A stretch of DNA of 64,000 bases from Candidatus Gastranaerophilales bacterium (GCA_944323035.1 CALUQY010000001.1:3131-67130), one strand, 5' to 3'; shown: positions 7,464 to 57,149, numbered from the stretch's first letter. The notes: generated from the sequence alone by a model not told the origin. Made by a program: numbers and translations.

Positions 7464-8642
7464 TTATCTTTTCACGCACATACTCCGCCCCGGGTGAGTT
7501 TTTAAAGCTTGTGCACAATTCCCTGTATGCAAAGCACAACGCCAACTCCTTGTAGGGTCGCCAATAACCATACTTGAAGAAAAAGCATCCGTCAACGTAA
7601 AATTAATCAAACTTCTGTTAACAAATAAAGATATTAATTCATCCCTGTTGGGCAATCGAACCTCTTCACTTTGCTCACGACAAAATCTGACATTTCCTTC
7701 ATAAACGACTGTAACATCCAGGACTTTATCTGTAGGAACCGGAGCAACAACAGAAGTATCTGTAGGCTGCAACGCAGTTATAAAGCCAATATCCTTACCG
7801 ACAGTATTAGGCCCTCTGCTTCCGTTTAAATCATAAACAAAATTCGCACATACAATTGCCTGTGAACGAAACTCCGATTCGTTATAAATAGATTTACATA
7901 ACGGATTATAATAAACCAAAACGCTTTCGCCATTAGCGGTTTCAAAGGCAGCTGCTTTTGTATTAAGCTGATGATAAGACCAACCGCCGGAATCGAAATC
8001 AAATCTTTCATTAAAATCTACAAGAGTTGTTATATCTTCCAACATAAGTGCAGAAGCTGTAGAGCCTTCGCCTATAAATGGCATTATCTTTTTGGGCAAG
8101 CCGCAATCCTCAAGGTGTTCATTATCACAAATATTGTTGATTTTAAGGACTTTTGCAAGCCCGTTTGTAACAAAAGTTTCAGCCGCTGTATCCTCAATTG
8201 AAGTAGAACCCGCGCTGTCTGTAGTTTCTCTTAATGTACCATAACCGTTCAAAGCAGGCATTAAAGCGATTGCCTGTGAAAATCTTGCATAAAGAGCTTT
8301 TCTTTGCGTGTTCCACGTGCGTTCGTTTATGTTTCCTGTAAGGCTTGGTAAGGTTATCGCCGCGACCACGCCGATTATTGTAAGGGATAACAGGATTTCC
8401 GCCATGGTGAAGGCACATTTCTTGACCGACAGCCTGTTGACCAAACATAGAACAGACTCAGTCGGTGTCATCGCGAGGGCGGAAGCCCGTGGCGATCCAG
8501 TCAAGCTCGTGGCGTCCTCAACTGGATTGCCACGCCGACTTCCGTCGGCTCGCAATGACATCGTGGTGCCCTCAACACCTAATCGGGCGGATAAGGCACG
8601 CCCCCCCCCCGTGTACAGGAATACTCTTCGATTGTTTTTCAT
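7464..8642 (-). CDS. Type IV pilin-like protein (prepilin-type N-terminal methylation domain), long leader, polyG in frame (ON)
   Basis: Class III signal ..KKCA|FTMAEILLSLTIIGVVAAITLPSL with E at +5. Conserved RBS (aaaggatgg) and ATG at 8642 give MKNNRRVFLYTGGGRA, read through the G10 tract in frame into the pilin. C-terminal ~270 aa are shared with three paralogs in this window. Confidence 0.7.
   Translation of the reverse strand: MKNNRRVFLYTGGGRALSARLGVEGTTMSLRADGSRRGNPVEDATSLTGSPRASALAMTPTESVLCLVNRLSVKKCAFTMAEILLSLTIIGVVAAITLPSLTGNINERTWNTQRKALYARFSQAIALMPALNGYGTLRETTDSAGSTSIEDTAAETFVTNGLAKVLKINNICDNEHLEDCGLPKKIMPFIGEGSTASALMLEDITTLVDFNERFDFDSGGWSYHQLNTKAAAFETANGESVLVYYNPLCKSIYNESEFRSQAIVCANFVYDLNGSRGPNTVGKDIGFITALQPTDTSVVAPVPTDKVLDVTVVYEGNVRFCREQSEEVRLPNRDELISLFVNRSLINFTLTDAFSSSMVIGDPTRSWRCALHTGNCAQALKTHPGRSMCVKR
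8601..8610 (-). repeat. Homopolymeric G10 tract (C10 on + strand) in the 5' coding leader of a pilin-like gene
   Basis: Counted directly: cccccccccc at 8601-8610, encoding GGG on the minus strand. Confidence 0.9.
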
Positions 8643-8689
8643 TTTTCCATCCTTTCTTTTATTGCGTTGGGCTGGAAAGCCCAACCTAC

Positions 8690-30433: not shown

Positions 30434-30712
30434 ATGATTAAATCATTCAAACATAAAGGTTTGGAAGAGTTTTTTAACACCGGCTCAAAAAAAGGCATCC
30501 AAGCTATACACGCAGAAAAATTAGTATTAATTCTGGCAATCCTTGATACAATGAAAAATCTTGAACCTTTACAACCGGCAATGTTCAGACTCCACAAACT
30601 TGAAGGTAAAATGAATGATTTATGGTCAATTACAGTTCAGGCAAACTGGCGGATAACTTTTCGATTTGAAAATGAAAATGTTTATGTCGTTGATTATCTG
30701 GACTACCACTAA
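30434..30712 (+). CDS. higB: HigB-family (RelE/ParE-fold) toxin
   Basis: MIKSFKHKGLEEFF...RLHKLEG...WSITV..NWRITFRFENENVYVVDYLDYH, the classic HigB 'killer protein' pattern. SD aaggat sits 3 nt upstream of this ATG, which is preferred over the track start at 30413. Confidence 0.85.
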   Translation: MIKSFKHKGLEEFFNTGSKKGIQAIHAEKLVLILAILDTMKNLEPLQPAMFRLHKLEGKMNDLWSITVQANWRITFRFENENVYVVDYLDYH

Positions 30713-30723
30713 GGAGGTCGAAT

Positions 30724-31002
30724 ATGTTTAACCCGCCGCATCCGGGAAAAATATTAAAAGAAATCTATCTTAAAGATTATAATCTGACTGTCACTGAATT
30801 CGCACTAAAAATCGGAGTTTCCAGAAATACGGCTTCGGAACTCATAAACGGCAAAAATCGTGTGACTGCAGAAATGGCACTAAAATTGGCTAAAGCATTT
30901 AAAGTGTATCCACAATTTTGGCTGGATTTACAAGCAAAATATGACCTATGGAATGCAGAACAGTCTGTTAATCTTGATAACGTTCAGGTAATTGCAATAT
31001 AA
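30724..31002 (+). CDS. higA: HigA antitoxin (XRE-family HTH)
   Basis: HPGKILKEIYL.....TVTEFALKIGVSRNTASELINGKNRVTAEMALKLAKAF....FWLDLQAKYDL. Confidence 0.85.
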   Translation: MFNPPHPGKILKEIYLKDYNLTVTEFALKIGVSRNTASELINGKNRVTAEMALKLAKAFKVYPQFWLDLQAKYDLWNAEQSVNLDNVQVIAI

Positions 31003-31012
31003 AAAAAGAAAA

Positions 31013-34929: not shown

Positions 34930-36309
34930 TTACAGAAACTTCCTTTTTACAAAACAGAATAGAAACCGCTCAACCGTTTGAAGTATTACAACATCGGCAT
35001 CCCCTATATTACTTTTCTTGACGTCATAAGTCCAATAGTAAGATACATCACGGAAAGTATTAGAAATAAACGGTAACATCGCACGGGAAAATGAATCCCG
35101 AAACATAACAAGTTTTGGTGCATCAATGTCCTTATGTGAAAACATATCATTATGCGACAACAAATCGCTCGGAGTGGTATCTTTTATAGAAAATTCATAG
35201 TCTTTTGTTATAAATGCATCTACATATTCGGTATTTGCAGCCGCACTCTTAGATAATCCAATCAACATATTATCTAATTCTTTAATTCCCGCCTTATATC
35301 TAACAAATTTTTCAGGTTTTACCGGCTCAATATCAACGCCATCATTAATCAATGCATCTGCCAATGCTTTATACCCGACATATCCGCCTAAAGAGTTCCA
35401 ATGCGTATCATTTTTCCAGTATAAAAGCTCGCCTTTTTCCTTAGCCTGATACAGTTCATTATATGGATAAATCACCTTAATATCCGTATGTTTATGCAAA
35501 TAATTTATCAACTGCATAACACGGCTTTTGCTATTAGGAATAGTTTGTTTTATATAATCAGGATAATACTCACCATAGATTTTATTCTTATCCGGTCCAA
35601 TAAAGAAATAAAAACGCTTATTCCTTTGTTTACAATATTCATCAACTGAAACCAGATAGTTAGCAATATATTTTAATTCATCATCGGTAAACAAATCTAA
35701 ATTCAGGAAATTACGAACACCATTCTCTCCTTTATAAAATAACCAGTCATCTTTGCCTATCACAACATCCGGCTGATTTTTATCTAAAACAAATTTTGCA
35801 TTAAACTTTAGCAGCAGATTTCTTAAGTTAAATCTGTCACTGAACCATTTGTCATAATCGCGGCCAAAATTATAGTTTATTTGTCCTTTTTTGTTGATAA
35901 ATGGCTTCCATACCGCAAGATTTCGGTTCTCTGCATCTGATTTTTTTGCATCTGAGATATGGCTCATCGGAAGAAACATTATTACTGTACATACTGCCAA
36001 AAATACTATATCTATACGGGAATACTTCTTCTCTGTCTTAAAATCCGCAAGATATGAAGTCAGTTTATACGATAGCAGATAACCTAATATCGCAATGATT
36101 ATAAACGGCAACGCGTCAAACTTTACACTCGGACGAACGGGTTTGCGAGATTGGCTGTTTATAGCGGGTAAGGCACGCCCCCCCCCCCCCCGCACTGTTT
36201 GCACGGCAACAGGTGATTTCGGTTTTATCGTAAGCCACGCATTGTGGCTCAAGCCTAATATCACGAATACAAGTAATATACTTATTATACTTCTTTTACG
36301 CATTAACAT
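34930..36309 (-). CDS. AlgJ/AlgX-like (DHHW-family) polysaccharide O-acyltransferase-associated protein, paralog A, in-frame G14 tract
   Basis: TM1, then R-GGGG-R encoded by G14, then TM2/TM3 (ALPFIIIAILGYLLSYKLTSYLADF), then a periplasmic domain NRNLAVWKPFINKKGQINYNFGRDYD...WKNDTHWNSLG (DHHW-type motif variant DTHW). Confidence 0.6.
   Translation of the reverse strand: MLMRKRSIISILLVFVILGLSHNAWLTIKPKSPVAVQTVRGGGGRALPAINSQSRKPVRPSVKFDALPFIIIAILGYLLSYKLTSYLADFKTEKKYSRIDIVFLAVCTVIMFLPMSHISDAKKSDAENRNLAVWKPFINKKGQINYNFGRDYDKWFSDRFNLRNLLLKFNAKFVLDKNQPDVVIGKDDWLFYKGENGVRNFLNLDLFTDDELKYIANYLVSVDEYCKQRNKRFYFFIGPDKNKIYGEYYPDYIKQTIPNSKSRVMQLINYLHKHTDIKVIYPYNELYQAKEKGELLYWKNDTHWNSLGGYVGYKALADALINDGVDIEPVKPEKFVRYKAGIKELDNMLIGLSKSAAANTEYVDAFITKDYEFSIKDTTPSDLLSHNDMFSHKDIDAPKLVMFRDSFSRAMLPFISNTFRDVSYYWTYDVKKSNIGDADVVILQTVERFLFCFVKRKFL
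36178..36191 (-). repeat. Homopolymeric G14 tract (C14 on +) inside coding region
   Basis: Counted: ccc + cccccccccc + c at 36178-36191; encodes RGGGGR in frame. Confidence 0.9.
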
Positions 36310-36314
36310 TTCTC

Positions 36315-37718
36315 CTAAAATCTAAAATAAATAAACGGATTATACGTTGAAGCCGCTATGGTCGCAGTTGAGAAAATCAACAGCACAATAAGCCAAACAT
36401 TCACAAAGGCTTTTACAATTTTGTTTTCCTGTTGCAGCATCTTCCCGCACAACGGCGTACAGCAAATAAATGCAGCTGCAAAAATTATAAATTCAAAATT
36501 ATCAACATAATACGGCAATGCATAAATTACATCATGAACTTTAACCAGCCCGAACATATTTTTAATATATGTCCACGCATACGCCATATCTTCAGCCCTG
36601 AACATTACCCAGCCGATTACAAATACAAGAATTGTATAAATATGTTGAAGGACTTTCTGCCAGATATATTGTTTTTCTTCATGCCAGCCGGTTAATTTTT
36701 CCAGAATAATAAAGAACCCGTTCCACGCGCCCCATACAACAAAATTCCACGCAGCACCATGCCAGATACCAGTCAGGAGAAAAACTATACCCAAATTCCG
36801 GATAGTTTTCCATTTTCCGGCTCTGTTTCCGCCAAGCGAAATATACACATACTGTTTGAACCATGTCGAAAGTGATATATGCCACCTGCGCCAAAATTCC
36901 GTAATAGATTTTGAAATATAAGGATAATTAAAGTTTTCAAGGAAATGAAACCCGAAAATAAGCCCAAGACCTATTGCCATATCCGAATATCCCGAGAAAT
37001 CAAAGAACAACTGCAAAGAATATGCAATGCTTCCCAGCCATGCAATAAGCGGCGAAAAAGTATCCGGCGCCTGAGAAAATATTTTATCCGCAATAGCCCC
37101 CATTGTATTTGCCAGAAGCATCTTTTTAGATAAACCTACAATAAAACGCTTTGTTCCGAATACAACTTTTTCAAAGTTAACATCACGATTATCTATCTGA
37201 TCCGCGACATCATGGTATTTAACAATCGGCCCTGCTATTAACTGCGGGAACAAACATATATAAAGCGCAAGTTTATAAACATCCTGCTGTGCCTTACATT
37301 CTCCACGATACACGTCTACGACATAAGACAAAGCCTGAAAGGTATAAAAAGAAATACCAATCGGCATTACAATATGGAGTAAATCAATATGAGAATGGAA
37401 AAGTCCATTAATATTCTCAATTAAGAAGTTAAAATATTTGAAGTAAATAAGTGAGCCTAGATTGATACAAATAGTCAAAATCAAAGGAATCTTAGCATTT
37501 CTGCCGGATTCTTTAAACTTTTCAACGATTTTTGCGCCATAAAAATTAACAAGTATCGTTAAAAGCATTATAGCCAGATACTTAGGCTCACCCCATGCAT
37601 AAAATATTATGCTTGCGACAAGTAAAATCGGATTGTGAAGCTCTTTTTTGGAAATCAAATAGAGCAAGCACACAATCGGCATAAACATATACACAAACGT
37701 CATTGACGAAAATAACAC
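36315..37718 (-). CDS. MBOAT-family membrane-bound O-acyltransferase (AlgI/DltB/PatA-like)
   Basis: Multi-TM protein; MBOAT signature WRRWHISLSTWF...GIWHG with the conserved His. Confidence 0.85.
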   Translation of the reverse strand: MLFSSMTFVYMFMPIVCLLYLISKKELHNPILLVASIIFYAWGEPKYLAIMLLTILVNFYGAKIVEKFKESGRNAKIPLILTICINLGSLIYFKYFNFLIENINGLFHSHIDLLHIVMPIGISFYTFQALSYVVDVYRGECKAQQDVYKLALYICLFPQLIAGPIVKYHDVADQIDNRDVNFEKVVFGTKRFIVGLSKKMLLANTMGAIADKIFSQAPDTFSPLIAWLGSIAYSLQLFFDFSGYSDMAIGLGLIFGFHFLENFNYPYISKSITEFWRRWHISLSTWFKQYVYISLGGNRAGKWKTIRNLGIVFLLTGIWHGAAWNFVVWGAWNGFFIILEKLTGWHEEKQYIWQKVLQHIYTILVFVIGWVMFRAEDMAYAWTYIKNMFGLVKVHDVIYALPYYVDNFEFIIFAAAFICCTPLCGKMLQQENKIVKAFVNVWLIVLLIFSTATIAASTYNPFIYFRF

Positions 37719-39442
37719 TAATTACCCTCCTTGTATAAAAATTTTAATCTTATAGCAGATGATAAACAGAGCACTAATACATTTGTATTATTATTCAATA
37801 TATCCTTTTCAAAACGTTCAATATTTAAGTTTTTAAAAGCCAGACTAATTTCCGGAAGCCAGGTATAAATTCTTTCTGTATTTTTAAAGCTATAAACAAT
37901 AGATTGTAAAAGATTTTCACCCATAGAATCTCCCCAAAGAGTCAAATTTGGAGCGGCAACATCATGTTTAAAATGTTTTAGCTTGTAATTTGCAGGATAA
38001 TTGGAATCAATCTTTAATGAAACATTTTCAGATTCTTTATTTTTATAATACTTATATTCAGTATCAAAAATTTTTTCATCTTTTAAGTGTAATACATTTG
38101 CAGTAAAACCGTTATGAAATGGGCGTTCCGGTTCGACCCTTACCTTTGGTGAATAAAAATAACTAAAATCACTCTCGTCATTAACATAAATAGAAGGAAA
38201 ATCCTTTTTTATATACTGCATTAAACATTTATATGCAAGATAAGCACCCTCATCAGTCCAATGGTGATCAGTCTTGTAAAAAAGCAATTCTTTACCGTTT
38301 GCAGCATTCTTAAATTCATCAATCGGATACAAAATATCAACATTTATCTTATTTTTAACATACTCTTTCACTTGCATCGTACGTGCATATTCATTACTTT
38401 TTGCAACCAGCGGAAATAGATTTGCTGAATAAACGTCATATTTTGAAGGGGCAATTAAAATATAAAATTTTATATTATTTTTCAGACAAAATTGTTTTAA
38501 ACGATTTATACTATAAACTATTCGTTCCAATTCCTCATTATTATAATAGCCGGATGATGGCCAATACGTATTACTCATCCAATTATTTCTTTTATTTATA
38601 AATCCCTGTTTATTTTCAAAATAATAAAATGCTATTTTATATTTAAATTGATTATAAAAAGATACTAAATATTCACGTAAATTAAACCTGTCACTGAACC
38701 AATTATCGTAATCACGCCCAAAATTATAGTTTATTTGACCTTTCTTATTAATAAATGGCTTCCAGACTGCAAGATTACGGTTTTCAGCATCTGAAAGTTT
38801 AGCATCAGAAATATGACTCATTGGTAAGAATAAAAATAACGCACAAATAATTAAAAATATTATATCTATACGGGAGTAATTACCAACGACCTTAAAATCT
38901 GCCAAATATGAGGTCAGTTTATACGACAGCAGATAACCTAATACCGCAATGATTATGAATGTCAATGCTTCAAATTTTATACCGGAGCGGACTTTTAGTT
39001 TTTCAGGATATGTCAAGCTGAAAGTATTAGCAGAAGGCATTAAGGAGTCCCCCCCCCCCCCGTACGTAGCACAGGACGCTAACTTAAACTCGGATACAGA
39101 TGGAAATTTAAACTTACCATTCTTCAGCGTAATATCTTTTATTTCAATTGGAGATAAATTCGATGATTTAACTACAATTCTAAAGCGTTTTGGGAATCTA
39201 GCTCTATCTATTTGACATTCACATTTCTGTATATTTCCATTCAAGTGTTTCTTTATAACGCACTGTTTTACTTTTTTAAAATCCTCATTATCCTTCTTAT
39301 TCAACTGGACGGTAAATGTATAATCTCCGTTACCTTTTACCAGAAAACTCACCGGCATTGGTTTAAATATCAGCCAGTGATTGCAGGTAAGAGCTAGCAT
39401 AATTATTGTCAAAACCCCGCTTATAATATCTCTTCTTCGCAT
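37718..39442 (-). CDS. AlgJ/AlgX-like DHHW-family protein, paralog B, in-frame G13 tract
   Basis: FYKTDHHWTDEGAYLAYK (canonical DHHW). N-terminal 200 aa are ~identical to paralog C. ATY-GGGG-DS encoded by G13. Confidence 0.65.
   Translation of the reverse strand: MRRRDIISGVLTIIMLALTCNHWLIFKPMPVSFLVKGNGDYTFTVQLNKKDNEDFKKVKQCVIKKHLNGNIQKCECQIDRARFPKRFRIVVKSSNLSPIEIKDITLKNGKFKFPSVSEFKLASCATYGGGGDSLMPSANTFSLTYPEKLKVRSGIKFEALTFIIIAVLGYLLSYKLTSYLADFKVVGNYSRIDIIFLIICALFLFLPMSHISDAKLSDAENRNLAVWKPFINKKGQINYNFGRDYDNWFSDRFNLREYLVSFYNQFKYKIAFYYFENKQGFINKRNNWMSNTYWPSSGYYNNEELERIVYSINRLKQFCLKNNIKFYILIAPSKYDVYSANLFPLVAKSNEYARTMQVKEYVKNKINVDILYPIDEFKNAANGKELLFYKTDHHWTDEGAYLAYKCLMQYIKKDFPSIYVNDESDFSYFYSPKVRVEPERPFHNGFTANVLHLKDEKIFDTEYKYYKNKESENVSLKIDSNYPANYKLKHFKHDVAAPNLTLWGDSMGENLLQSIVYSFKNTERIYTWLPEISLAFKNLNIERFEKDILNNNTNVLVLCLSSAIRLKFLYKEGN
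39049..39061 (-). repeat. Homopolymeric G13 tract (C13 on +) inside coding region
   Basis: Counted cc + 10c + c at 39049-39061. Confidence 0.9.
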
Positions 39443-39532
39443 TTACTCCTCCTTACCTAAACTATATTACAAACAGGGAGAATATTCATTCAAACATTCA
39501 ACATTTTAAATAAAATGTTACAATAAAACAAT

Positions 39533-41257
39533 TTACAACTTTTCCTCAAAAATATCCATAAAAGAATCCATATTTAAGAAACGTTGTAAAAAACGTTCTG
39601 TCGTTTCTATAATTAATATATCCGGTTTTTCAGAAAACAATAGACGTTTCATGTTTTCATTCAAAACAAAATTTCTACCACCACCAAAGAATAGATATTT
39701 ATAGATATGAAAATTTTCAGCCATGAAATACCTACAACGTAATTGAAAACTGTCACCAATTAAAACAAGTTTTAAATCATTTTGAGATTTTGCATTACTA
39801 TACTCATATAGTACATCATCTGAATTATTAGTAACATGTATGATAGATTCTTTAGCATTTGGATATTTGAGTTTATAATAATTAAAGCGATCTTCATATT
39901 TTGCTATAATGTTTTTATTTGTAATATTAAGACTGTCACCAATACGTTTACTACTAACCAATTCAACATCACTAAAATCTAATGGCTGAATATCTACAAA
40001 ATCTTTTTGTAAAGTCGACAGAATCGTTTGATACTCTATAAATGCCCCATCATAATTTAAATGGCTATCAGTTTTAAAAAATACATTTAGCTTTTTTGAA
40101 ACTAATAATAATTTTTCCTTAGAGGTTATTACTGACAAATCATTAATGTGTGAGATTATTGCTAATAATTGTTCATAACGGCTTTGACAATTATTTTGTA
40201 AATAATACTTCGGATAATATTCGGGGTAGATACTTTCTTTATCTGGTGACAACATAATATATAATTTAACATTGTGCTTTTTACAATATAAGTTTAATTC
40301 ATTTAAATTTTGCTGTATTGTAAACAACTCTTCTTTAGAAAATAGATTGTTTTTCAAATACATTTGAGTTGCATTATATGATTTGCGATAACAATAACCC
40401 GAAACCTTATCTAATATCATGACTCTTGTTTCATAGTACCTACCGGGAAGAATAAAATGTAATTGTTCATACAAACCAAACAATACACTCCGTAAACCAA
40501 ACCTGTCACTAAACCAGTTATCATAATCACGACCAAAATTATAATTTATTTGACCTTTTTTATTAATAAATGGCTTCCAGACGGCAAGATTTCGGTTCTC
40601 TGCATCTGATTTTTTTGCATCTGAGATATGACTCATTGGTAAGAATAAAAATAACGCACAAATAATTAAAAATATTATATCTATACGGGAGTAATTACCA
40701 ACGACCTTAAAATCTGCCAAATATGAGGTCAGTTTATACGACAGCAGATAACCTAATACCGCAATGATTATGAATGTCAATGCTTCAAATTTTATACCGG
40801 AGCGGACTTTTAGTTTTTCAGGATATGTCAAGCTGAAAGTATTAGCAGAAGGCATTAAGGAGTCCCCCCCCCCCCCGTACGTAGCACAGGACGCTAACTT
40901 AAACTCGGATACAGATGGAAATTTAAACTTACCATTCTTCAGCGTAATATCTTTTATTTCAATTGGAGATAAATTCGATGATTTAACTACAATTCTAAAG
41001 CGTTTTGGGAATCTAGCTCTATCTATTTGACATTCACATTTCTGTATATTTCCATTCAAGTGTTTCTTTATAACGCACTGTTTTACTTTTTTAAAATCCT
41101 CATTATCCTTTTTATTCAATTGAACTGTAAACGTATAATCCCCATTCCCTTTAACGAAAAAGGTTACAGGTAAAGGTTTAAATATTAACCAGAATTTACT
41201 CGTCAAAACAAGCAATATTATGGTCAAAATAGCACTTATAATATCCCTTCTACGCAT
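39533..41257 (-). CDS. AlgJ/AlgX-like family protein, paralog C (degenerate DSHL motif), in-frame G13 tract
   Basis: N-terminal ~215 aa identical to paralog B (DNA 40615-41257 = 38800-39442). C-terminal domain diverged, FFKTDSHLNYDGAF. Confidence 0.55.
   Translation of the reverse strand: MRRRDIISAILTIILLVLTSKFWLIFKPLPVTFFVKGNGDYTFTVQLNKKDNEDFKKVKQCVIKKHLNGNIQKCECQIDRARFPKRFRIVVKSSNLSPIEIKDITLKNGKFKFPSVSEFKLASCATYGGGGDSLMPSANTFSLTYPEKLKVRSGIKFEALTFIIIAVLGYLLSYKLTSYLADFKVVGNYSRIDIIFLIICALFLFLPMSHISDAKKSDAENRNLAVWKPFINKKGQINYNFGRDYDNWFSDRFGLRSVLFGLYEQLHFILPGRYYETRVMILDKVSGYCYRKSYNATQMYLKNNLFSKEELFTIQQNLNELNLYCKKHNVKLYIMLSPDKESIYPEYYPKYYLQNNCQSRYEQLLAIISHINDLSVITSKEKLLLVSKKLNVFFKTDSHLNYDGAFIEYQTILSTLQKDFVDIQPLDFSDVELVSSKRIGDSLNITNKNIIAKYEDRFNYYKLKYPNAKESIIHVTNNSDDVLYEYSNAKSQNDLKLVLIGDSFQLRCRYFMAENFHIYKYLFFGGGRNFVLNENMKRLLFSEKPDILIIETTERFLQRFLNMDSFMDIFEEKL
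40864..40876 (-). repeat. Homopolymeric G13 tract (C13 on +) inside coding region
   Basis: Counted 7c + 6c at 40864-40876. Confidence 0.9.
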
Positions 41258-46408: not shown

Positions 46409-47747
46409 TTAACGTTCAACACATCGGGAACTATATCTATTATTCCTTGAAACCAACATTCTGGCTCCTGAAGAGATATTTTGAGCCCAAGCCTTTGTAC
46501 CGGAAGTCGTATACCCCAAAGAAGATGTCCAAATTGAGCCATTACCGGTTCCGATAAAATGATCACGACTTTGCATTCTTTTATTAACAAAAATGGCTCC
46601 TGCTTCTTCTGTTGTTGGAAGTCTATACTTATTATCCTGTGCAGTACAATATTTAGCGGCATCAATCCAGCCGTTTTCATGAACAGCATTTTCACGTTTT
46701 ACATAAGGTGCTGCCAAAACGCTATCCGTTGGATAAAAAGCGGTCATAAAACCTATATCTTTACCAACAGTATTCGGCCCTTTAAGTCCATTAAGATCAT
46801 ATACAAAATTTGCGCAAACCATTGTCTGTATTGGCACATGAGCTTCAGAAGATTTTAAATCTGCAACGCAGTTTTTATTATAATAAACAGCAATACTTTC
46901 ACCGTTAGCAGTTTCAAACGCAACAGCTTTACTCCGTATAGCGCTATAAGAATACGTAGAGTCATAACTTGAGCTTGCCAGAACCATCTGTGTATTTAAA
47001 GCAGCCATTGTTGTGGGGAAATTAAAATCTGCTTCACCAGAAAGGCGTGTTATTGTTTTAGGTAAACCGCAATCTTTAAAATGTTCATTGTCACAGATAT
47101 TATTAATTTTTAAGACTTTAGCCAGTCCTGCAGTGACGAAAGTTTCAGCAGCTGTATCCGCCGTGACACTGCCGGAATCATCTTCCGCTAGTGTACCATA
47201 ACCATTAAGATTAGGCATTAAGGCAATTGCCTGACTCATTCTGGCATAGAGGGCTTTTCGCTGCGTGTTCCATGTGCGCTCGTTAATGTTTCCCGTAAGG
47301 CTCGGTAAGGTTATCGCCGCCACCACACCTATTATCGTGAGGGATAAGAGTATCTCCGCCATAGTAAAAGCTAATCGCGCCAACCGCCCCACGTCATTGC
47401 GAGCGACCACCGGGAGCGTGGCAATCCACCGGCGGTCAAGCCGGCTTCCTAATTGGTTGGGCGTTAAAAAGTCATGTTCTACCAGTTGTGGATGCCACTC
47501 AGCGGTCGGTTCAGCCGGTGTCATCCCGAATTTATTTCGGGATCTGTCCGGCGACACTGATAGCCCGCATCGCTGGCCAGATGCTGAAACGAGTTCAGCA
47601 TGACAGTTTTGTTTCACATTCTCGCTTTGTGCCTCTGTTCGCTCGCGCTGTTCGCAATGACAATTATAGGCTTTCGACTCGCCAATAGTGCCTGTTAAGA
47701 GAGGCCCCCCCCCCCCCTGCATTAATGCTTACTCTTCGGTTTTTCAT
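46409..47747 (-). CDS. Type IV pilin-like paralog, polyG OUT of frame (phase OFF) relative to conserved start
   Basis: Conserved RBS + ATG at 47747 gives MKNRRVSINAGGGG.. and terminates after 27 codons with G13. Pilin frame 46409-47722 contains ..LARLA|FTMAEILLSLTIIGVVAAITLPSL. G12 or G15 would fuse the two frames. Confidence 0.65.
47705..47717 (-). repeat. Homopolymeric G13 tract (C13 on +)
   Basis: Counted 6c + 7c at 47705-47717. Confidence 0.9.
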
Positions 47748-51793: not shown

Positions 51794-53030
51794 TTAATTA
51801 CGCTTGACGCATTTGACCCTTTTGGCTTCTGTTTCATCTATAGGTTCAAGAAATATTCTTCCGGTTGTGCCGCTCATATTCCATGCTTTAGTTGAATCAT
51901 AGCGGCTGGATGACCAATAGTGTAGACTTGCAATATTAAGCAATTTGCTATTATAAAACATAGAAATAACTTCACCTATGTTTGGCACACGGTATTCTGC
52001 ATCCAAAGCCGTACAGGCCTTGGGTGCCTCATTAAAGTCAACTTCAACGCCCGCATTCCGAGGATACAGCATCGGGGCGACAACAAGGCTGTCTGACGGA
52101 TACAACACCGTCATTACACCGATGTCTTTACCAACAGCATTCGGACCTTTGCTGCCGTTTAGGTCATACACAAAGTTCGCACAAACCTTGCTCGCACCAT
52201 AGTAATCTGTTTCCTGCATATCTGCCCTGCAAGTTGGATTATAGAAGGCGAGAATACTTTCGCCATTCTGGGTTTCAAAAGCAGCGGCTTCGCTATCTAC
52301 ATTACTATAAGAATAGTCTATTGGTGTTGAAGCAGTAGTATCGGTAAATGACATACTTGTGTTTTTAGGGTTCAATTCACTGACGAGTTTTGGCATTGAC
52401 GTTGTACTGCCAGCGTTATCCGTAATCTGTTTTGAGGTTATTCCGCAATCTTCAAGGTGGTCTTTGTCGCAGATATTATTAATTTTCAAAACCTTAGAAA
52501 GCCCGGCCGTTACAAAAGTTTCGGCATCGGAATAGCCGTTCATTGAATCCATTAACGAAACTGCCTGTGAAAACCTTGCATATAGCGCTTTTCTTTGCGT
52601 ATTCCACGTTCGTTCATTAATGTTTCCTGTAAGTGACGGAAGCGTTATCGCTGCGACTACGCCGATAATTGTTAGGGATAACAGTATCTCAGCCATGGTA
52701 AACGCTGACCGTAAGCTGACCAGACCATTGTGGAACCGGCTCAGCCGGGCTGCCATCGTGAATGCGCAACGTTGGTTCTCCCGCCTGTCAAATTCTACGC
52801 AACGATTATCAATCGTTGCAGAATTTGTCCGCTCCTTACACTCGCGCTCCAGTCGCAACGGCGGCATCGTCCAGTTGCGCGCCCTGCCCGTTTCGCTCGC
52901 GCGAACCGGCGCCGGCTCTCCGCCCTTCGCTGTAGCTTTCACGCCGTCCGTGAGCACGGATTGCTTAGATAGAACCGGCTCAGCCGGCCCCCCCCCCCCC
53001 TGCATAAGTAATTACACTTCGGTTTTTCAT
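51794..53030 (-). CDS. Type IV pilin-like paralog, polyG OUT of frame (phase OFF)
   Basis: ATG at 53030 gives MKNRSVITYAGGGGAG*. Pilin frame 51794-53005 contains ..LRSA|FTMAEILLSL. C-terminal ~240 aa are identical to the 56046-57149 paralog. Confidence 0.65.
52988..53000 (-). repeat. Homopolymeric G13 tract (C13 on +)
   Basis: Counted ccc + 10c at 52988-53000. Confidence 0.9.
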
Positions 53031-56045: not shown

Positions 56046-57149
56046 TTAACGCTTAACGCATTTAACCATTTTCCATCCGGTTGAGCTAATTGGCTCAATA
56101 AATATTCTTCCTGTTGTTCCGCTCATATTCCAGGCTTTAGTTGAATCATAGCGGCTGGATGACCAATAGTGCCTATTTGCAATATTAAGCAATTTGCTAT
56201 TATAAAACATAGAAATAACTTCACCTATGTTTGGCACACGGTATTCTGCATCCAAAGCCGTACAGGCCTTGGGTGCCTCATTAAAGTCAACTTCAACGCC
56301 CGCATTCCGAGGATACAGCATCGGGGCGACAACAAGGCTGTCTGACGGATACAACACCGTCATTACACCGATGTCTTTACCAACAGCATTCGGACCTTTG
56401 CTGCCGTTTAGGTCATACACAAAGTTCGCACAAACCTTGCTCGCACCATAGTAATCTGTTTCCTGCATATCTGCCCTGCAAGTTGGATTATAGAAGGCGA
56501 GAATACTTTCGCCATTCTGGGTTTCAAAAGCAGCGGCTTCGCTATCTACATTACTATAAGAATAGTCTATTGGTGTTGAAGCAGTAGTATCGGTAAATGA
56601 CATACTTGTGTTTTTAGGGTTCAATTCACTGACGAGTTTTGGCATTGACGTTGTACTGCCAGCGTTATCCGTAATCTGTTTTGAGGTTATTCCGCAATCT
56701 TCAAGGTGGTCTTTGTCGCAGATATTATTAATTTTCAAAACCTTAGAAAGCCCGGCCGTTACAAAAGTTTCGGCATCGGAATAGCCGTTCATTGAATCCA
56801 TTAACGAAACTGCCTGTGAAAACCTTGCATAAAGCGCTTTTCTTTGCGTGTTCCATGTTCGCTCGTTGATGTTACCGGTAAGGCTCGGTAATGTTATCGC
56901 TGCCACCACGCCGATTATCGTCAGGGATAATAATATCTCTGCCATTGTGAACGCTGCGTTTTTCGTCATCCCGAATTTAGTTCGGGATCTGTCCAACGTT
57001 ACCGGTAGCTCGCTTTGCTGGACAGACCCTGAATCAAGTTCAGGGTGACAATAAAATTTTACGTTGTCCGTGAGCACGCTTTCCGATTGTAGAACCGGCT
57101 CAGCCGGCCCCCCCCCCCCCGTGCAAATACTTACACTCTGTTTTTTCAT
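56046..57149 (-). CDS. Type IV pilin-like paralog, polyG in frame (ON)
   Basis: MKKQSVSICTGGGGPAEP... runs through G13 in frame to ..MTKNAA|FTMAEILLSL; an alternative short leader MTKNAA is also available. Shares its 3' ~720 bp with the 51794 paralog. Confidence 0.7.
   Translation of the reverse strand: MKKQSVSICTGGGGPAEPVLQSESVLTDNVKFYCHPELDSGSVQQSELPVTLDRSRTKFGMTKNAAFTMAEILLSLTIIGVVAAITLPSLTGNINERTWNTQRKALYARFSQAVSLMDSMNGYSDAETFVTAGLSKVLKINNICDKDHLEDCGITSKQITDNAGSTTSMPKLVSELNPKNTSMSFTDTTASTPIDYSYSNVDSEAAAFETQNGESILAFYNPTCRADMQETDYYGASKVCANFVYDLNGSKGPNAVGKDIGVMTVLYPSDSLVVAPMLYPRNAGVEVDFNEAPKACTALDAEYRVPNIGEVISMFYNSKLLNIANRHYWSSSRYDSTKAWNMSGTTGRIFIEPISSTGWKMVKCVKR
57108..57120 (-). repeat. 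Homopolymeric G13 tract (C13 on +)
   Basis: Counted ccc + 10c at 57108-57120. Confidence 0.9.

Follow-up and report, generated by a model that had tools for sequence, protein, structure and literature searches.

How might a single acyl donor in the bacterial membrane serve several catalytic partners, and can those partners be switched on and off? The question is raised by four genes at positions 34930-41257 of a 64,000-nucleotide stretch of DNA from Candidatus Gastranaerophilales bacterium (GCA_944323035.1 CALUQY010000001.1:3131-67130; the whole stretch is henceforth called the window). There a gene for a membrane-bound O-acyltransferase (MBOAT) is accompanied by three paralogous genes, henceforth partners A, B and C, each bearing a long run of G near its 5' end. 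We put the probability at roughly 80% that A, B and C are phase-variable partners of one MBOAT acyl donor.

An open reading frame (ORF) scan revealed four co-oriented minus-strand genes in the order C-B-MBOAT-A, bearing out an earlier first-pass annotation of this DNA in which an MBOAT is flanked by three paralogs. Coordinates are those of the window throughout, and tracts are written as coding-strand G. The genes and their tracts are as follows.

39533..41257, minus strand: partner C, 574 aa (ORF scan, Pfam ALGX, motifs, family alignment)
37718..39442, minus strand: partner B, 574 aa (ORF scan, Pfam ALGX, AlphaFold model, Foldseek)
36315..37718, minus strand: MBOAT acyl donor, 467 aa (Pfam MBOAT, alignment to DltB 6BUG)
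34930..36309, minus strand: partner A, short form, 459 aa (Pfam ALGX, alignment to PatB1 and AlgJ)
40864..40876, minus strand: C tract, G13, encoding Y-GGGG-D (GGGG plus the first base of the Asp codon) in a beta-sandwich loop
39049..39061, minus strand: B tract, G13, encoding Y-GGGG-D
36178..36191, minus strand: A tract, G14, encoding R-GGGG-R in an extracytoplasmic loop

Partner A likely starts at the second ATG, at 36303, which gives 457 aa and is the start that gene callers use on related contigs. The stop codon of B overlaps the start codon of the MBOAT gene by 1 nt (TAGTG), 5 nt separate the MBOAT gene from A, and 90 nt separate C from B; from this spacing we infer that the four genes form one operon. 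In a scan for operon signals, promoter-like sites were no commoner than in shuffled sequence and no gene-strand terminator was found.

Poly-G tracts and their lengths in near-identical strains

The window holds 26 overlapping matches to G10, compared with 0.03 expected from dinucleotide-preserving shuffles, and its seven G tracts of at least 10 all lie on the coding strand of their own genes. The tract lengths and positions given by the first-pass annotation for A, B and C proved exact, and all three genes read through their own tracts in frame in the window.

We took contigs encoding an identical MBOAT or an identical 129-aa neighbour from independent metagenome samples, read the tract lengths from the assembled contigs and compared them between samples. 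The strain of the window was present in six samples, on contigs of 9.6-16.4 kb with 1-5 differences each, nearly all of them in or beside tracts. The samples behind L082/L092, L093 and L086-L089 have the accessions ERZ28614354, ERZ28614382, ERZ24773405, ERZ24773413, ERZ24773408 and ERZ28613925. Contig L092 matches the window over 16.4 kb with no mismatch and two indels, one of which makes the A tract G13 (versus G14) while the other lies in the poly-G of a pilin-like gene at 47705. Contig L093 matches over 14.3 kb with no mismatch and a single indel, at the A tract, and in the alignments of L082 and L086-L089 with the window 13 of 16 differences fall in or abut the three tracts. Among these near-isogenic contigs the A tract occurs as G14 (ON), G13 (OFF) and G11 (ON, with one Gly fewer), and the B/C tract spans 12-14 nt in total, with G13+A or G14 being ON and 13 nt or G12+A being OFF. 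Variation was also seen in a second lineage, where the A tract is G14 or G13, and in a third locus layout, where a C14 tract (ON, 553 aa) contrasts with C15 (OFF, 137 + 405 aa). Protein databases contain matching GGG, GGGG and GGGGG forms, along with products that begin just past the tract.

The A/BC states observed were ON/ON, OFF/ON and OFF/OFF. B and C had to be scored jointly, because short-read assemblies cannot separate the two copies of an identical block in which both tracts lie.

38811..39295 (in B) and 40626-41110 (in C), minus strand: 485-nt block, 100% identical between the two genes and spanning both tracts

From its sequence, we take the block to reflect gene conversion or a recent duplication. 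Up to eight combinatorial states had been foreseen for the locus; the three A/BC states are what the contigs hold, and the remaining states were not seen among them. The underlying proposal of phase-variable tracts fared better, since near-isogenic contigs differ in tract length and include ON as well as OFF frames. The tracts show two properties of repeat contingency loci, being homopolymers far above chance in coding sequence and differing in length, in ON and OFF forms, between otherwise identical genomes, and we consider it very likely that they are truly hypermutable.

The four further poly-G tracts of the window, one G10 and three G13 (8601-8610, 47705-47717, 52988-53000 and 57108-57120), lie at the 5' ends of minus-strand ORFs (7464-8684, 46409-47722, 51794-53005 and 56046-57149). 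These ORFs end in paralogous type-IV-pilin-like proteins with the common prepilin N-terminus AFTMAEILLSLTIIGVVAAITLPSL, three of the four having a weak Lcl_C-like C-terminal domain, and in two of them the tract starts directly after the ATG (MQGGGGP...). Between poly-G and prepilin N-terminus, 60-140 codons are open in frame (~46900-47700, 52500-53000, 56850-57110 and 8350-8600) and translate to repeat-element-like sequence, for example CHPELDSGSV..., WIATLPVVARNDV and SLRADGSRRGNPVEDA; these stretches are either unusually long prepilin leaders or intergenic repeats resembling repetitive extragenic palindromes that are open by chance. The tract at 47705-47717 is G13 in the window and G14 in L092 (position 14280), the gene being called as 437 aa in the former and 402 aa in the latter, and L093 ends within this tract.

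The MBOAT and its AlgX-family partners

The MBOAT gene product matches Pfam MBOAT (PF03062) with 123.1 bits against a cutoff of 27 (E = 2e-35) and aligns to DltB (6BUG) at 1.3e-25, the alignment spanning the RWH(I/M)SLS motif that reads NRWHMSLS in DltB. Two motifs carry its assignment.

36879-36893, minus strand: catalytic-His motif WRRWH with H280 (DltB alignment and motif position)
36318..36335, minus strand: C-terminal hexapeptide F462-I-Y464-F-R-F467 (FIYFRF), which fits the FXYXXF acyl-tyrosine shuttle motif

RWH[IM]S is kept in all 81 MBOAT orthologues, and FXYXXF ends the protein in 80 of the 81. In PatA-type MBOATs, FXYXXF is the acetyl-Tyr shuttle, PatA being auto-acetylated there and the acetyl group being passed to the SGNH partner; when fused to the enzyme, the motif marks an acyl-CoA class of MBOATs that needs neither DltX nor DltC (Anderson et al., PMC12148441). 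DltB is the best match of our MBOAT in both NCBIfam and the Protein Data Bank (PDB), and the score against the DltB equivalog TIGR04091 is 157 bits, far under the cutoff of 375, which leaves the protein outside that equivalog. On the strength of its motifs we assign the MBOAT to the bacterial acyl-CoA class with a fused shuttle and predict that it auto-acylates on Tyr; its fused FXYXXF motif takes the place of DltX.

The partners almost certainly belong to the AlgX/DHHW group of circularly permuted SGNH-like acyltransferases. A kinship with AlgJ, AlgX and DHHW proteins had been put forward from the motifs DTHW in A, DHHW in B and DSHL in C, and both hidden Markov model and fold searches upheld it. 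Pfam ALGX (PF16822) matches all three proteins above its gathering cutoff of 26.5 bits (A, 56.8 bits, E = 3.7e-15; B, 44.4 bits, E = 2.1e-11; C, 43.8 bits, E = 3.2e-11), and Pfam DHHW (PF14286) is marginal, with 26.0 bits for A and 25.3 for B against a cutoff of 25 and no match for C. No NCBIfam model matched the partners. The nearest solved sequences to A are Bacillus cereus PatB1 (5V8D, 5e-8) and AlgJ. Modelling was done for B alone among the partners (AlphaFold, mean predicted local distance difference test score of 89.1), and Foldseek retrieved with this model, at probability 1.00, PatB1 (3e-12), the DHHW protein 4NZK (1e-11), AlgJ (5e-8) and AlgX (1e-5), with a TM-score of 0.66 to PatB1 normalised to the target. 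The predicted structure of B thus has the permuted SGNH-like alpha/beta/alpha core.

The three motifs are present at residues 301 in A (NDTHW), 392 in B (TDHHW) and 397 in C (TDSHL), and are followed by the serine motifs RDS at 404 in A, GDS at 504 in B and GDS at 501 in C. The triads are accordingly D301/H303/S406 in A, D392/H394/S506 in B and D397/H399/S503 in C. In an alignment of 70 homologues of the partners, the His and Ser columns are invariant (70/70) and the Asp column holds Asp in 65 and Glu in the other five. The doubt that the first-pass annotation had raised about the degenerate motif of C is thereby lifted as far as the triad is concerned: C has Asp, His and Ser at the positions that the family conserves and is therefore probably catalytically competent. 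PatB1 has a Block V TDHHW and a Block II DxRY whose Arg forms the oxyanion hole (PMC9487903). Among the partners the complete Block V is found in B only, and because the Block II Arg is not conserved, A, B and C are, judging by sequence, better placed in a subfamily of their own within the AlgX/DHHW group than among DHHW proteins in the strict sense.

Each partner has three hydrophobic segments with the Gly run between the first and the second. B and C consist of a first transmembrane segment (TM1), a beta-sandwich of ~135 residues resembling a carbohydrate-binding module, TM2, TM3 and an AlgX/DHHW-like catalytic domain; in the B model, TM1 spans residues 3-23, the beta-sandwich 24-157, TM2 159-185 and TM3 191-209, followed by the catalytic domain, and the Gly run (128-131) is predicted to form a beta-sandwich loop between strands 125-127 and 133-136. 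A lacks the beta-sandwich and has a ~40-aa loop carrying the tract between TM1 and TM2, followed by TM3 and the catalytic domain. The layout first proposed, with TM1, a linker, Gly4, TM2/TM3 and a DHHW domain, was right in its segments and in the place of Gly4; what it called a linker is in B and C a folded beta-sandwich according to the model. One stretch of all three genes is strikingly alike.

35822..36121 (in A), 38676-38975 (in B) and 40491-40790 (in C), minus strand: shared 300-nt module encoding TM2, TM3 and the juxtamembrane SDAENRNLAVWKPF...FSDRF

This module, henceforth TM2-TM3-ENR, is 79-94% identical as DNA among A, B and C and nearly identical as protein, and its E220 and R222 are invariant in the partner family. 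The catalytic domains are ~25-35% identical and, by sliding-window identity, hardly alignable as DNA. We regard the shared module as a putative MBOAT-docking and recombination segment.

Distribution and reshuffling of partner genes

A search with the MBOAT returned 80 species-level loci. Their labels are Gastranaerophilales or Melainabacteria in nearly every case and other taxa in some, and the closest locus is on the complete chromosome OZ007029.1; OZ006972.1 is a further complete chromosome. One partner directly upstream of the MBOAT gene is the standard layout (69 of 90 loci), and two partners upstream plus one downstream were found at 5 of 90 loci, only in the window's own strain lineage. 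When 778 neighbour ORFs from the 80 species were clustered, the MBOAT and a partner were the only conserved genes. The next commonest neighbour encodes a ~2000-aa multi-domain protein, judged by eye to be a glycosyltransferase, and occurs at 16 of the 80 loci.

Tracts recur across species. G9-G17 or C9-C10 was found at the equivalent site in 17 of 66 complete loci (9 ON, 11 OFF), with flanks that are not conserved, and 1.25 Mb of related loci with 34% GC hold 44 G/C tracts of at least 9, compared with 0.24 expected, ~20 of them (~45%) in the partner gene family. The Gly run is not kept as protein in relatives without the tract. In the hypervariable loop of the N-terminal beta-sandwich in some species, poly-C (encoding Pro, with PPP/PPPP homologues) replaces poly-G (C10 at L020 304, C9 at L055 6505 and C10 at L070 8696), and long-form partners may carry the tract in one of two different loops, at about residue 97 or about residue 127.

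The partners also change by whole domains. For pairs of species with an MBOAT identity of 90% or more, the last 330 residues of the partners have a median identity of ~31%, about the same as between distant species. Within one population at least four layouts occur, namely A only, C+B+A, one upstream partner only, and one upstream partner plus A, and strains with an identical MBOAT protein either lack B and C (A only) or have a single upstream partner only. The partner at L091 (6171-7832) is a chimera of a C-like 5' module (93% identity) and an A-like catalytic domain (81%), its two parental matches overlapping within the shared TM2-TM3-ENR segment. Such sequences are in keeping with catalytic cassettes being exchanged when genes recombine at the conserved module. 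Layout variants also occur at L094 6061-7723, L097 6095-7831 and L081 upstream of 6001, and L090 carries another partner set, including a 260-aa plus 288-aa pair without poly-G.

Several short-read contigs begin or end within ~100 nt of poly-G (L005 at 83, L047 at 75, L061 at 68, and the end of L093), which fits assembly breaks at heterogeneous or low-quality sites. JGI metagenome contigs, scanned for the flank of the A tract plus G9, gave no match. The poly-G artefact of two-colour Illumina sequencing was considered and rejected, since the tracts are internal to contigs, in frame, at homologous sites in many independent assemblies, and present in HiFi chromosomes.

More distant metagenome-assembled genomes labelled Akkermansia have G9-G10 near the 3' ends of ORFs (L075 9756, 13066 and 16429; L077 9746; L078 4211), with ~550 open codons before the tract and ~77 after it and a recurring TATATAAAATTA-like downstream flank, which is a different repeat placement. 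In the window, the genes flanking the locus encode a GH38 mannosidase, a Band_7 protein, a TSCPD protein and glutamate synthase, with no dltA, dltC or dltX among them, and a HigB-like toxin with a helix-turn-helix antitoxin lies at ~30435-31003 (from L082 12716-13284), a few kb past the GH38 and Band_7 genes.

Alternative readings, proposed mechanism and known systems

Might the tracts merely encode a flexible Gly linker, with length differences that are sequencing or assembly noise? Runs of G13-G14 are error-prone, several contigs have low coverage judging from their names, contigs often end at or near the tract (L093, L005, L047 and L061), and the tract states of B and C always agree. Yet the tracts are also present in the HiFi chromosome assemblies L001 and L010, and a single contig can have some tracts that match the window and others that differ, which speaks against a systematic miscount. 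In genes of ~30-37% GC, moreover, a Gly linker would not be expected to use GGG codons without exception, and the G run reaches into the adjoining Arg and Asp codons. Relatives without the tract have no Gly run there, the same loop bears poly-C and hence Pro in some species, and ~45% of all G/C tracts of at least 9 in the 1.25 Mb fall in this one gene family. We therefore hold noise to be highly improbable. It is also very improbable that the tract alternates the product between a fused form and one that is split or shortened at its N-terminus yet retains activity. This idea draws on the -1 state of B and C, where the TAA of the upstream frame overlaps an in-frame ATG (TAATG) and gene callers annotate 133 + 440 aa, and on the G13 state of A, where translation from a GTG in the other frame passes through the tract and yields 435 aa. 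The post-tract ATG, however, exists only in the lineage of the window, L001 and L002 and is lacking in other tract-bearing species; a split in the middle of the beta-sandwich would, according to the model, break a folded domain, and TM2-TM3 without TM1 would be expected to put the catalytic domain in the cytoplasm. OFF alleles would be null.

Two other explanations accept the switching and concern what the proteins do. A, B and C could be obligatory steps of a relay on one polymer, so that loss of any one abolishes modification, much as alginate acetylation needs AlgJ and AlgX in addition to the MBOAT AlgI (PMC4148444; bioRxiv 10.1101/2023.07.25.550544), and all three do keep the catalytic triad. 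A single partner is nonetheless the rule across the order (69/90 loci), strains with an identical MBOAT make do with A only or one upstream partner only, and the same membrane docking module in all three suggests that they compete for one site on the MBOAT. A relay is hence improbable, and A, B and C are likely to be alternative partners. The target could alternatively be an invariant housekeeping polymer, modified by peptidoglycan O-acetylation as with PatA/PatB or by D-alanylation as with DltB/DltD: the locus is a free-standing two-gene module like patA-patB with no polysaccharide synthesis genes conserved beside it, and DltB is the best NCBIfam and PDB match of the MBOAT. Against D-alanylation stand the equivalog score of 157, far under 375, and the fused FXYXXF of the acyl-CoA class (PMC12148441), while hypervariable catalytic domains, accessory paralogues and ON/OFF switching are unexpected for any conserved polymer, and PatB1, the closest solved structure, has a secondary cell-wall polysaccharide rather than peptidoglycan as its target (PMC9487903). 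We judge a housekeeping target unlikely and lean towards a variable polysaccharide rather than peptidoglycan, "exopolysaccharide" being an assumption.

Several points weigh against phase-variable partners of one MBOAT. The Block II DxRY Arg column is not conserved, with R in 41 of 70 homologues, Y in B and F in C. The gene neighbourhood, conserved only in the MBOAT-partner pair, points to no target, and the acyl donor and acceptor are both matters that we infer. The constant agreement of B and C in tract state may have arisen during assembly from the 485-nt block, and a premature stop in C or B could also reduce expression of the MBOAT gene that follows and render the states non-independent. 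The evidence for switching comes from contigs compared between samples; long G tracts are slippage-prone in PCR and sequencing, and several contigs have just 8-10x coverage (from contig names).

With these reservations, we propose that the locus encodes a hub-and-spoke system which would acylate, most likely acetylate, a cell-surface glycan outside the cytoplasm, and whose spokes are contingency genes. By analogy with its family, the MBOAT would be supplied by a cytoplasmic acyl donor, most likely acetyl-CoA, and would load the acyl group via His280 onto Tyr464 of its FIYFRF on the outward-facing side of the membrane. An AlgX/DHHW-type partner would dock on the MBOAT through the TM2-TM3-ENR module, its Ser (S406 in A, S506 in B, S503 in C) accepting the acyl group with the help of His and Asp, and would then pass it to a hydroxyl of an extracytoplasmic glycan. 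Since their catalytic domains are only ~25-35% identical, A, B and C probably serve different acceptors or positions. Sequence comparison indicates that the tract early in each partner gene gains and loses bases far more often than the surrounding DNA. A change of +1 or -1 stops translation either past TM1 or partway through the beta-sandwich, and a 3-base change alters the protein by one Gly only. The outcome would be a population mixed in its acylation states, in which over longer times catalytic domains are swapped and partner genes gained or lost.

By structure and chemistry, the nearest known systems are PatA1/PatB1, AlgI/J/X and PatA/PatB. PatA1-PatB1 of Bacillus cereus and B. anthracis likewise pairs an MBOAT with a circularly permuted SGNH-like enzyme, and PatB1 is the best match of the partners in sequence and fold, sharing the Block V TDHHW and the serine of a Block I (K/G/R)DS. 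Its hosts, however, are Gram-positive, PatB1 has a single N-terminal anchor in place of three TM segments and a beta-sandwich, and the Block II DxRY Arg of PatB1 is not conserved in the family of the window locus. For PatA1-PatB1 we came across no description of repeat tracts, of more than one partner for an MBOAT or of catalytic domains that are hypervariable. The alginate (AlgI/AlgJ/AlgF/AlgX) and cellulose (WssH/WssI) systems also combine an MBOAT with AlgX-family proteins, in line with Pfam ALGX being the strongest family match, and alginate resembles the window locus in having more than one SGNH-like protein per MBOAT. But their genes sit inside operons for polysaccharide synthesis and export whereas only the MBOAT-partner pair is conserved here, AlgJ and AlgX are both required whereas the extra partners here are accessory, no equivalents of AlgF or AlgK were seen at the window locus, and neither system is phase-variable. 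Gram-negative PatA/PatB shares the MBOAT that ends in an FXYXXF shuttle and the free-standing two-gene module (PMC12148441), but PatB is a canonical SGNH protein outside AlgX/DHHW, its peptidoglycan target is invariant and the pair is not phase-variable.

In logic, the nearest systems are the O-methyl phosphoramidate (MeOPN) transferases of Campylobacter jejuni and the AT3 O-acetyltransferases. The MeOPN transferase genes cj1421c and cj1422c of the capsule locus come closest, being paralogous surface-glycan transferase genes with intragenic poly-G whose ON/OFF settings in combination produce distinct surface patterns and influence resistance to phages (PMC8355987). Unlike the partners, they belong to an unrelated enzyme family with unrelated chemistry, have no common membrane donor, and carry G8-G11 in a pathogen, as against G13-G14 in an uncultured commensal. 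Phase-variable AT3-type O-acetyltransferases (oafA of Haemophilus influenzae; Salmonella oafB/GtrC; PMC9558356) likewise switch surface-glycan O-acetylation stochastically, but do so with an AT3-domain donor, often fused to SGNH, through tetranucleotide repeats or Dam/OxyR epigenetics, and with one donor per transferase, whereas the single MBOAT of the window could serve several separately switching transferases.

MBOAT plus SGNH-like pairs that acylate envelope polymers, and poly-G switching of surface genes in a few well-studied pathogens, are thus already known apart. Our searches of open-access papers turned up no account that brings MBOAT systems and repeat-mediated switching together, nor any that describes repeat-based phase variation in Gastranaerophilales or Melainabacteria. 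The fullest form of our proposal is that one MBOAT with a Tyr shuttle supplies acyl groups, as a shared hub, to interchangeable transferases that are each specific for an acceptor, have a poly-G or poly-C switch of their own that acts independently of the others, and can be rebuilt by recombination at the docking module; that a gut commensal of the cyanobacterial sister lineage thereby gains a combinatorial, evolvable glycan-acylation code; and that, together with the poly-G pilin-like genes, it is the first contingency-locus repertoire described in Melainabacteria/Vampirovibrionia. We give this extended proposal an even chance.

Metagenome pipelines will routinely call such genes pseudogenes or split ORFs (133 + 440 aa; 137 + 405 aa), and contigs tend to break at the tracts. 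We know of no isolate of Gastranaerophilales. If the proposal is true, the locus offers a natural experiment on MBOAT-partner specificity, with one donor and shuttle, many ~27%-identical catalytic domains and a constant docking module, and could inform studies of what in the sequence determines acyl-Tyr hand-off and the choice of acceptor. An uncultured, widespread gut lineage would then share a bet-hedging strategy with Campylobacter or Neisseria, implying strong and fluctuating selection on its surface by phages, immunoglobulin A or other bacteria.

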